NCBI RefSeq assembly: GCF_003334305.1
Contig: NZ_QOWS01000029.1
Source: Escherichia coli
GTDB lineage: Bacteria; Pseudomonadota; Gammaproteobacteria; Enterobacterales; Enterobacteriaceae
Length of the DNA: 43,616 nt
Reading direction: 5' to 3' (one strand)
Shown: one piece after another, positions 15,732 to 36,912 of the stretch
Position numbering within the stretch: position 1 is the first letter of the stretch
How the letters are laid out: the number at the start of each line of letters is the position of its first letter
Position numbers and translations under genes: made by a program
The notes under the pieces: generated by a model
What the model was told of the DNA's origin: nothing
Seen by the model: only the letters and a program-made list of their open reading frames with translations
Databases searched by the model: none

Positions 15732-15831
15732 GTAGGCCGGATAAGGCGCTCGCGCCGCATCCGGCACTGTTGTCAAACTCCAGTGCCGCAATAATGTCGG
15801 ATGCGATACTTGCGCATCTTATCCGACCTAC
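15732..15831. repeat. Pair of REP elements
   Basis: gtaggccggataaggcgctcgcgccgcatccggc and gtcggatgcgatacttgcgcatcttatccgacctac, in inverted orientation. Confidence 0.6.
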
Positions 15832-16079: not shown

Positions 16080-18731
16080 ATGAACGAACAATATTCCGCA
16101 TTGCGTAGTAATGTCAGTATGCTCGGCAAAGTGCTGGGAGAAACCATCAAGGATGCGTTGGGAGAACACATTCTTGAACGCGTAGAAACTATCCGTAAGT
16201 TGTCCAAATCTTCACGCGCTGGCAATGATGCTAACCGCCAGGAGTTACTCACCACCTTACAAAATTTGTCGAACGACGAGCTGCTGCCCGTTGCGCGTGC
16301 GTTTAGTCAGTTCCTGAACCTGGCCAACACCGCCGAGCAATACCACAGCATTTCGCCGAAAGGCGAAGCTGCCAGCAACCCGGAAGTGATCGCCCGCACC
16401 CTGCGTAAACTGAAAAACCAGCCGGAACTGAGCGAAGACACCATCAAAAAAGCAGTGGAATCGCTGTCGCTGGAACTGGTCCTCACGGCTCACCCTACCG
16501 AAATTACCCGTCGTACACTGATCCACAAAATGGTGGAAGTGAACGCCTGCTTAAAACAGCTCGATAACAAAGATATCGCTGACTACGAACACAACCAGCT
16601 GATGCGTCGCCTGCGCCAGTTAATCGCCCAGTCATGGCATACCGATGAAATCCGTAAGCTGCGTCCAAGCCCGGTAGATGAAGCCAAATGGGGCTTTGCC
16701 GTAGTGGAAAACAGCCTGTGGCAAGGCGTACCAAATTACCTGCGCGAACTGAACGAACAACTGGAAGAGAACCTCGGCTACAAACTGCCCGTCGAATTTG
16801 TTCCGGTCCGTTTTACTTCGTGGATGGGCGGCGACCGCGACGGCAACCCGAACGTCACTGCCGATATCACCCGCCACGTCCTGCTACTCAGCCGCTGGAA
16901 AGCCACCGATTTGTTCCTGAAAGATATTCAGGTGCTGGTTTCTGAACTGTCGATGGTTGAAGCGACCCCTGAACTGCTGGCGCTGGTTGGCGAAGAAGGT
17001 GCCGCAGAACCGTATCGCTATCTGATGAAAAACCTGCGTTCTCGCCTGATGGCGACACAGGCATGGCTGGAAGCGCGCCTGAAAGGCGAAGAACTGCCAA
17101 AACCAGAAGGCCTGCTGACACAAAACGAAGAACTGTGGGAACCGCTCTACGCTTGCTACCAGTCACTTCAGGCGTGTGGCATGGGTATTATCGCCAACGG
17201 CGATCTGCTCGACACCCTGCGCCGCGTGAAATGTTTCGGCGTACCGCTGGTCCGTATTGATATCCGTCAGGAGAGCACGCGTCATACCGAAGCGCTGGGC
17301 GAGCTGACCCGCTACCTCGGTATCGGCGACTACGAAAGCTGGTCAGAGGCCGACAAACAGGCGTTCCTGATCCGCGAACTGAACTCCAAACGTCCGCTTC
17401 TGCCGCGCAACTGGCAACCAAGCGCCGAAACGCGCGAAGTGCTCGATACCTGCCAGGTGATTGCCGAAGCACCGCAAGGCTCCATTGCCGCCTACGTGAT
17501 CTCGATGGCGAAAACGCCGTCCGACGTACTGGCTGTCCACCTGCTGCTGAAAGAAGCGGGTATCGGGTTTGCGATGCCGGTTGCTCCGCTGTTTGAAACC
17601 CTCGATGATCTGAACAACGCCAACGATGTCATGACCCAGCTGCTCAATATTGACTGGTATCGTGGCCTGATTCAGGGCAAACAGATGGTGATGATTGGCT
17701 ATTCCGACTCAGCAAAAGATGCGGGAGTGATGGCAGCTTCCTGGGCGCAATATCAGGCACAGGATGCATTAATCAAAACCTGCGAAAAAGCGGGTATTGA
17801 GCTGACGTTGTTCCACGGTCGCGGCGGTTCCATTGGTCGCGGCGGCGCACCTGCTCATGCGGCGCTGCTGTCACAACCGCCAGGAAGCCTGAAAGGTGGC
17901 CTGCGCGTGACTGAACAGGGCGAGATGATCCGCTTTAAATATGGTCTGCCAGAAATCACCGTCAGCAGCCTGTCGCTGTACACCGGGGCTATTCTGGAAG
18001 CCAACCTGCTGCCACCACCTGAGCCGAAAGAGAGCTGGCGTCGCATTATGGATGAACTGTCAGTCATCTCCTGCGATCTCTACCGTGGCTACGTACGTGA
18101 AAACAAAGATTTTGTGCCTTACTTCCGCTCCGCTACGCCGGAACAAGAATTGGGCAAACTGCCGTTGGGTTCACGTCCGGCGAAACGTCGCCCAACCGGC
18201 GGCGTCGAGTCGCTGCGCGCCATACCGTGGATTTTTGCCTGGACGCAAAACCGCCTGATGCTCCCCGCCTGGCTGGGTGCAGGTACGGCGCTGCAAAAAG
18301 TGGTCGAAGATGGCAAACAGAGCGAGCTGGAAGCCATGTGCCGCGATTGGCCATTCTTCTCGACGCGTCTCGGCATGCTGGAGATGGTCTTCGCCAAAGC
18401 AGACCTGTGGCTGGCGGAATACTATGATCAACGTCTGGTAGACAAAGCACTGTGGCCGTTAGGTAAAGAGTTACGCAACCTGCAAGAAGAAGACATCAAA
18501 GTGGTGCTGGCGATTGCCAACGATTCCCATCTGATGGCCGATCTGCCGTGGATTGCAGAGTCTATTCAGCTACGGAATATTTACACCGACCCGCTGAACG
18601 TATTGCAGGCCGAGTTGCTGCACCGCTCCCGCCAGGCAGAAAAAGAAGGCCAGGAACCGGATCCTCGCGTCGAACAAGCGTTAATGGTCACTATTGCCGG
18701 GATTGCGGCAGGTATGCGTAATACCGGCTAA
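16080..18731 (+). CDS. ppc: Phosphoenolpyruvate carboxylase
   Basis: 883-aa ORF with conserved PEPC motifs ([30 protein letters not shown]) and C-terminal ...NTG. Confidence 0.95.
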
Positions 18732-31292: not shown

Positions 31293-31390
31293 GCCTGATG
31301 CGCTACGTTTATCAAGCCTACGAAATCTCTGCAATATATTGAATATGCGTGCTTTTGTAGGCCGGATAAGGCGTTCACTCCGCATCCGGC
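31293..31390. repeat. REP elements
   Basis: gcctgatgcgctacgtttatcaagcctac and gtaggccggataaggcgttcactccgcatccggc. Confidence 0.55.
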
Positions 31391-35673: not shown

Positions 35674-36567
<894 letters not shown>

Positions 36568-36615
36568 TTACCTCATCAATCGCTTGTAGTTATATGTTGT
36601 GTTGTGCACATCTAT

Positions 36616-36655
36616 CCATTTAGACGTCCAGATGTAAAGATGAAGGAAAAGCCGA
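36616..36655. promoter_or_regulatory. MetJ operator (tandem met boxes) upstream of metF
   Basis: Tandem 8-bp repeats gcacatct / atccattt / agacgtcc / agatgtaa related to the met-box consensus AGACGTCT. Confidence 0.5.
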
Positions 36656-36799
36656 AGGGCGTCAACCGAAAAATGACCAATGATGGTGAGGAAAAATCAG
36701 GGAAGATGAAAAAACTTCAGGATGGTAAGAAAAAGAAAATCCGGTATGCAAAGCAAACCGGACTGCAAATATAAACTAACCATGTACTTATTGCTTCTT

Positions 36800-36830
36800 G
36801 CCGGATTCGTCGTAAACGCTTCATCCGGCC
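36800..36830. repeat. REP-like palindrome downstream of metL
   Basis: gccggattcgtcgtaaacgcttcatccggcc. Confidence 0.45.
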
Positions 36831-36912
36831 TAATCCTATGATAATTCAATATATTTCATTAGAAACCATAGACCCGAAAACATGAGTACCGGGCATTATT
36901 AAATTTCTGAAA

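Follow-up and report, generated by a model that had tools for sequence, protein, structure and literature searches.

The 44-codon open reading frame (ORF) located between metF and metL of Escherichia coli is very probably a non-functional shadow frame, i.e. the reverse-strand reading of DNA which functions on the minus strand. The ORF was analyzed within a stretch of 43,616 nucleotides of E. coli DNA, here referred to as the window, in which the metF-metL intergenic region has a size of 348 bp. The conserved blocks underlying the ORF would all be cis elements of the minus strand, namely the met boxes, the -10 and -35 hexamers, two MetR-type dyads and the metL terminator including its U-tract. 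The working role of the region would be the regulation of metF by MetJ and MetR, and the same stretch would also terminate the metBL transcript.

The ORF itself was described in an earlier note on this DNA, and its existence could be confirmed. Our translation was identical to the peptide given there, comprising 44 amino acids, and with 13 lysines among its 44 residues it is indeed lysine-rich. The position 36637-36771 reported for it is 3 nt too low, the correct coordinates being 36640-36774. The orientation was described correctly as well, since the ORF is encoded on the plus strand, opposite to metF on the minus strand, and is heading to the 3' end of metL. However, the ATG (36640-42) is not situated next to the met boxes, as had been assumed, but within the first, outermost of the five boxes (36638-45). 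The coding strand of the ORF consists of 47% A and 13% T. Furthermore, the ORF represents the in-frame tail of a longer open frame of 182 codons (36226-36774), itself in all likelihood an ordinary shadow frame antisense to metF. The coordinates of all features are listed in Table 1.

Table 1. Position of the ORF and of the surrounding features in the window
Feature	Position	Strand	Remarks
182-codon open frame	36226..36774	+	opposite to the first ~113 codons (5' part) of metF
44-codon ORF (MKEKPKGVNRKMTNDGEEKSGKMKKLQDGKKKKIRYAKQTGLQI)	36640..36774	+	ATG 36640-36642, stop TAA 36772-36774
metF CDS (methylenetetrahydrofolate reductase)	35674..36564	-	
metF Shine-Dalgarno region (GAGGTAAGG)	36566..36576	-	
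metF operator, five tandem 8-bp met boxes	36606..36645	-	CTTCATCT TTACATCT GGACGTCT AAATGGAT AGATGTGC
Putative metF -10 hexamer (CATCTT)	36637..36642	-	17-nt spacing to the -35 hexamer and conservation
Putative metF -35 hexamer (TTGACG)	36660..36665	-	near-invariant
Second, degenerate MetR-like dyad (TGAGGAAAAATCA; Salmonella TGAGGAATATTCA)	36687..36699		ORF codons 16-20 (EEKS)
Candidate MetR site, exact TGAANNNNNTTCA match (TGAAAAAACTTCA)	36707..36719		ORF codons 23-27 (MKKLQ)
Strain-variable segment	36720..36912		holds the last third of the ORF
Predicted intrinsic terminator 3' of metL	36727..36764	-	hairpin 36738-36764, then U-tract UUUUCUUUUUCUU 36727-36739
REP-type palindromic unit	36800..36832	+	flanked by metL stop and terminator; outside the ORF
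metL CDS (aspartate kinase/homoserine dehydrogenase II)	36913..39345	-	

An ORF of this length is not exceptional. The six frames of the window contained 161 ATG-ORFs of at least 44 amino acids, and just 35 of them reached at least 150 amino acids. When the 348 nt of the intergenic region were shuffled as mononucleotides, an ORF of at least 44 amino acids arose in 26% of the shuffles. The ORF therefore does not exceed chance expectation, and the cautious reading of the earlier note, a chance ORF in purine-rich DNA, is the one favoured by the evidence.

MetJ together with S-adenosylmethionine binds tandem met boxes over the -10 region and the transcription start, and MetR binds dyads upstream of the MetJ-bound met boxes at metF. 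In the window, five tandem repeats of 8 bp were found 5' of metF, all in register and matching the consensus AGACGTCT at 4, 5, 7, 4 and 5 of the 8 positions, respectively, where two such AGACGTCT-related repeats in front of a met gene characterize a MetJ operator at minimum. The operator palindrome spans 36609-36642, and the five boxes were near-invariant across the 80 loci used for comparison (see below). For the metF promoter region 'five met boxes' have been described (PMC3274233), and MetJ binding as well as SAM-dependent repression at met boxes are documented in the literature (PMC3274233, PMC3228920).

The putative promoter hexamers coincide with prominent parts of the supposed peptide. 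The CAT of the -10 hexamer CATCTT would be the complement of the ATG of the ORF, and the codons 7-9 (GVN), which form the most conserved 'peptide' motif, would be the complement of the -35 hexamer TTGACG.

Further upstream of metF two MetR-type dyads were located 20 bp apart from each other. Their arms are kept, and the centre varies between genera. Cowan et al. reportedly footprinted MetR on the Salmonella metF promoter in 1993. We infer from the sequence which of the two dyads corresponds to the characterized MetR site; the exact match to the 13-bp dyad TGAANNNNNTTCA is listed as the candidate. On its own such a match is weak since 0.92 exact matches are expected per window and 2 were found. 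The other one (TGAAAGATATTCA; 16918-16930, plus strand) lies within an 883-aa ORF at 16080-18731 and is probably due to chance, given the same expectation. The consensus was taken from the literature (PMC13393422). MetR has been reported to control metF (PMC3228920), and the 13-bp dyad was found in the promoter region of this gene.

The 3' part of the ORF is antisense to the gene end of metL. Approximately 150 nt downstream of the metL stop an intrinsic terminator was predicted, with a stable G+C-containing hairpin (-14.3 kcal/mol, z -2.8; also detected as inverted repeat I3) and a U-tract directly after it, on the downstream side of the operon. The complement of the U-tract accounts for the ORF codons 30-33 (KKKK), and the complement of the hairpin for the codons 34-41 (IRYAKQTG). 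In addition, the REP-type unit showed 0 mismatches to the degenerate REP pattern (GCCGGATG...CATCCGGC, an imperfect palindrome of ~35 bp). This kind of element is present in many extragenic copies, and further units were found in the window at 15733-15765 and 31358-31390, with zero expected by chance. The RefSeq record of K-12 contained no repeat feature at the metL-metF copy, and Rfam yielded no family at the locus beyond a weak, sub-threshold match to naRNA4/REP.

Superimposing the ORF on these elements places codon 1 in the outermost met box, reads the dyads as EEKS and MKKLQ and the terminator as KKKK-IRYAKQTG. These elements are rich in T on the minus strand and therefore the plus strand is rich in A/G and poor in T, a composition that disfavours stop codons and favours lysine codons. 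More than half of the ORF is taken up by the cis elements, which account for the conservation of its ATG, the peptide-like conservation, the purine richness and the lysine run.

As the main alternative, the ORF would encode a small protein of recent origin that is confined to Escherichia and Shigella, i.e. a basic and probably disordered protein of 44 aa whose mRNA would be a weakly translated antisense or read-through transcript crossing the metF promoter. We regard this as improbable. It is in line with the alternative that gene finders call the ORF, that ~3570 of the 5426 complete E. coli genomes carry an intact copy and that antisense-encoded small proteins exist in E. coli according to the main text of the preprint of Weaver et al. 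The signals for expression, however, argue against it. Pairing of the 20 nt 5' of the ATG with the anti-Shine-Dalgarno sequence yielded just -0.5 kcal/mol, so a Shine-Dalgarno sequence is absent, whereas the metF start, included as positive control, reached -6.9 kcal/mol. Sigma-70-like sites were found on neither strand between 36300 and 37100 in a scan with a simple consensus. The ORF strand consequently offered neither a ribosome binding site nor a promoter of its own.

The reading frame was compared among related species at 80 loci obtained by a MetF scan of species-representative genomes, ranging from Escherichia to Pantoea, Mixta and Erwinia. The alignment covered 215 nt upstream of metF and included 79 loci and the window; locus L035, where the contig ends near metF, was left out. 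The spacer between metL and metF typically measured 205-230 bp; in many other taxa it extended over 1.4-1.6 kb or exceeded 3 kb. Of the 80 aligned sequences, 79 had an ATG in the homologous column. Nevertheless, the frame was open for at least 27 codons in just 36 of 79 loci. In 23 loci it was interrupted at codon 10 by a stop, mostly through a CGA to TGA change, and in 16 by a +1 frameshift; further loci carried stops at codons 3, 6, 14 or 18. Among the genera with an interrupted frame were Salmonella, Enterobacter, Leclercia, Lelliottia and, for the most part, Buttiauxella. A frame conserved together with its start codon, as expected of a small-protein gene, was hence not found in the relatives. 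This is one of the two outcomes which the earlier note had named as evidence against a gene.

Two observations from the same alignment agree better with a protein. The frame is open for 34 codons in E. albertii and is open as well in several species of Citrobacter, Klebsiella and Kosakonia. Moreover, across the conserved block the frame of the ORF was the only one on the plus strand that was ever stop-free (37/80 loci vs. 0/80 for the other two frames). Many species yield a peptide-like string of the form MTEK..GVNRKI..EE.S.KMKKIHD. The conservation is block-like, however: over the 80 loci it matches the arms of the two dyads, the -35 hexamer and the five boxes of the operator, and turns into noise past 36720. 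The conservation of operator and dyads extends from Escherichia as far as Pantoea and Mixta.

The substitution pattern points in the same direction as the interrupted frame. The codon-position entropy of the ORF amounted to 0.71/0.78/0.83, without an excess at the third position, compared to 0.19/0.15/1.01 for metF in the same genomes. Substitutions within Escherichia were counted in a set consisting of strain 1190, one island-type strain, the GTDB representative and E. albertii. Here, 5 synonymous and 16 nonsynonymous substitutions were found in the ORF, close to the neutral ratio of ~1:3, and 144 synonymous and 6 nonsynonymous ones in metF. E. albertii alone contributed 0 synonymous and 8 nonsynonymous substitutions in the ORF. 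The pattern of a coding sequence, with third-position excess and dN << dS, was not observed, and this second comparison suggested by the earlier note likewise speaks against a gene.

Within the species the region falls into two parts. The segment from 36500 to ~36714 was present in all 5426 complete E. coli genomes, the remainder of the region past ~36714 in 3576 of them. In the other 1850 genomes (34%; e.g. ATCC 25922, F11 and SCU-301) the sequence diverges at ~36715-36720, and an unrelated insert of ~3.2 kb is located between metF and metL. The insert carries two genes, a bifunctional metallophosphatase/5'-nucleotidase and a 'cytoplasmic protein', the latter overlapping metL with its 3' end. 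The ~200 bp of K-12 type which it replaces comprise the terminator plus the REP. We considered the K-12-type segment 36720-36912 as a deletion scar of the insert and rejected this, as it shares no homology with the insert. The statement of the earlier note that the region is conserved backbone thus holds for 36565 to ~36720 but not for 36720-36912, which varies between strains.

The C-terminal third of the ORF lies in this strain-variable DNA, since 36720-36912 is replaced in 34% of the genomes. In the insert-type genomes the ORF departs after approximately codon 25 and ends at 29 aa (MKEKPRGVNRKMTNDGEEKSGKLKKTHLN), and PGAP annotates no ORF at this 29-codon version. A C-terminus exchanged for unrelated sequence in a third of the strains is hard to combine with a small protein, and together with the lack of a Shine-Dalgarno sequence, of a promoter and of a coding substitution pattern it leaves this suggestion of the earlier note unsupported. 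The first 96 nt of the ORF were 100% identical in 3508 genomes, a result that constraint on the promoter combined with low diversity within the species would predict just as well. The GTDB representative of E. coli (L006, strain SCPM-O-B-8794) carries an AAG to TAG change at ORF codon 6, homologous to 36655-36657 of the window. A 57-nt query with this variant had no exact match in the 5426 complete E. coli genomes, and the premature stop is therefore rare or private.

The metL-metF spacer was also found to be a hotspot of variable content (window 36715-36912; locus L005, 12215-15230; loci L006-L085), and the junction of the insert directly follows the upstream MetR-type dyad. A separate variation was present in strain E2865 (L086; NZ_AP018808.1, 13241-15640), which matches the window with 100% identity from 36500 to 36960. 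Its yijF-yijE-katG-metF block adjoins an IS621 transposase and the dpp operon, where SCU-301 has gldA/fsa/ptsP, and this suggests an IS-associated rearrangement.

The annotation of the ORF is inconsistent. It was called unannotated in the earlier note, and this is true of the curated record of K-12 MG1655 (NC_000913.3), which contains no feature between metL and metF. PGAP, on the other hand, calls the ORF in many E. coli RefSeq genomes, namely in all full-region RefSeq genomes among the matches listed, including a PGAP-annotated K-12 MG1655, as 'hypothetical protein' WP_000660586.1 or its variant WP_000660165.1. In a collection of 15 billion proteins at least 1000 contigs carried the exact peptide, labelled 'MULTISPECIES: hypothetical protein'. 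Homologues of the ORF were confined to Escherichia and Shigella and occurred in many lengths from 29 to 74 aa. No Pfam domain was found in them, and an NCBIfam search with the ORF peptide matched no family. The PGAP call is an ab initio prediction that spread via sequence identity.

The published lists that were consulted provided no evidence for the protein either. The peptide was not found in the novel-gene lists of EHEC translatomics and not matched in the PIRT-seq supplements; the sole 'metF' match in the EHEC translatomics paper and the PIRT-seq supplements was the gene name within a gene list. Neither the ORF nor metF or metL is mentioned in the main text of the preprint of Weaver et al. 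A literature search for WP_000660586 or for an intergenic or antisense product of metL/metF revealed nothing relevant. A text match to 'metF' in VanOrsdel et al. (PMC6001520) turned out to be a peptide beginning with METFCYMK. The same study found the annotation of a small ORF as 'hypothetical' to be uncorrelated with detection of the protein (PMC6001520), and thus the label by itself does not argue for a small protein.

Very doubtful is also a non-coding antisense or divergent transcript of the plus strand that modulates metF or metL, e.g. by transcriptional interference, with the ORF being incidental. Antisense transcription is widespread in E. coli, and the long open frame 36226-36774 spans the 5' end of metF, although an open frame is not evidence of transcription. 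The plus strand lacks a promoter-like site, and Rfam offered no family but the weak REP-related match. Furthermore, the elements of the minus strand fully account for the conserved blocks. Highly unlikely is a recently born, small basic protein confined to Escherichia and Shigella, whose coding sequence arose de novo on the strand opposite to the metF promoter/operator, the MetR sites and the metL terminator. If this were true, the transcription or translation of such a protein across the metF -10 region and the met boxes would provide the coupling to methionine regulation.

A leader peptide or regulatory upstream ORF for metF or metL, considered conceivable in the earlier note, has only its closeness to a regulated promoter in its favour and a next to negligible probability: it is refuted by the orientation of the ORF, which is opposite to both metF and metL instead of upstream on the same strand and inside the regulated transcript, the plus strand contains no gene for more than 3.5 kb downstream but only the antisense of metL and metB, and the ATG is positioned upstream of the putative transcription start of metF, for which reason the metF mRNA would lack even its complement.

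With the shadow frame as the preferred reading, the practical consequence concerns annotation. The best explanation for WP_000660586.1, which was propagated through RefSeq genomes of E. coli and Shigella by the thousands, is a spurious call. It provides an example of how promoter, operator and activator motifs of one strand can mimic a conserved peptide, even with a near-universal 'start codon', on the other strand. The biological importance is small, as the DNA in question comprises the terminator of metL and a control region, that of metF, which has already been studied well.

In comparison with known systems, the ORF resembles the small proteins YoaM, YqgG and YqhJ (Weaver et al. 2019) in being not longer than 50 aa and antisense or divergent to annotated genes. 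For those proteins, however, ribosome peaks of initiation complexes and the detection of tagged proteins are given in the main text of the preprint, whereas the sources consulted offered no such evidence for the ORF, and its substitution pattern is neutral. The likeness to spurious 'hypothetical' small ORFs (shadow ORFs), whose inflation of annotations was described by VanOrsdel et al. (PMC6001520), is closer. The ORF is short, located on the strand opposite to functional elements, free of a Shine-Dalgarno sequence, a domain and frame conservation, and its automatic call was propagated as an identical WP_ protein. It differs from them in that its ATG and the first ~27 'codons' seem to be conserved across genera, but this conservation belongs to the promoter/operator motifs. 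The DNA underneath corresponds to the metF promoter/operator of the met regulon of E. coli and Salmonella, with five AGACGTCT-related boxes directly upstream of metF and an exact TGAANNNNNTTCA dyad plus a second, degenerate dyad further upstream. It differs from that system in nothing unusual, with the -10 hexamer and the MetR site as putative assignments, and the region as a whole is the known metF control region followed by an ordinary gene end of REP plus terminator, with nothing novel.
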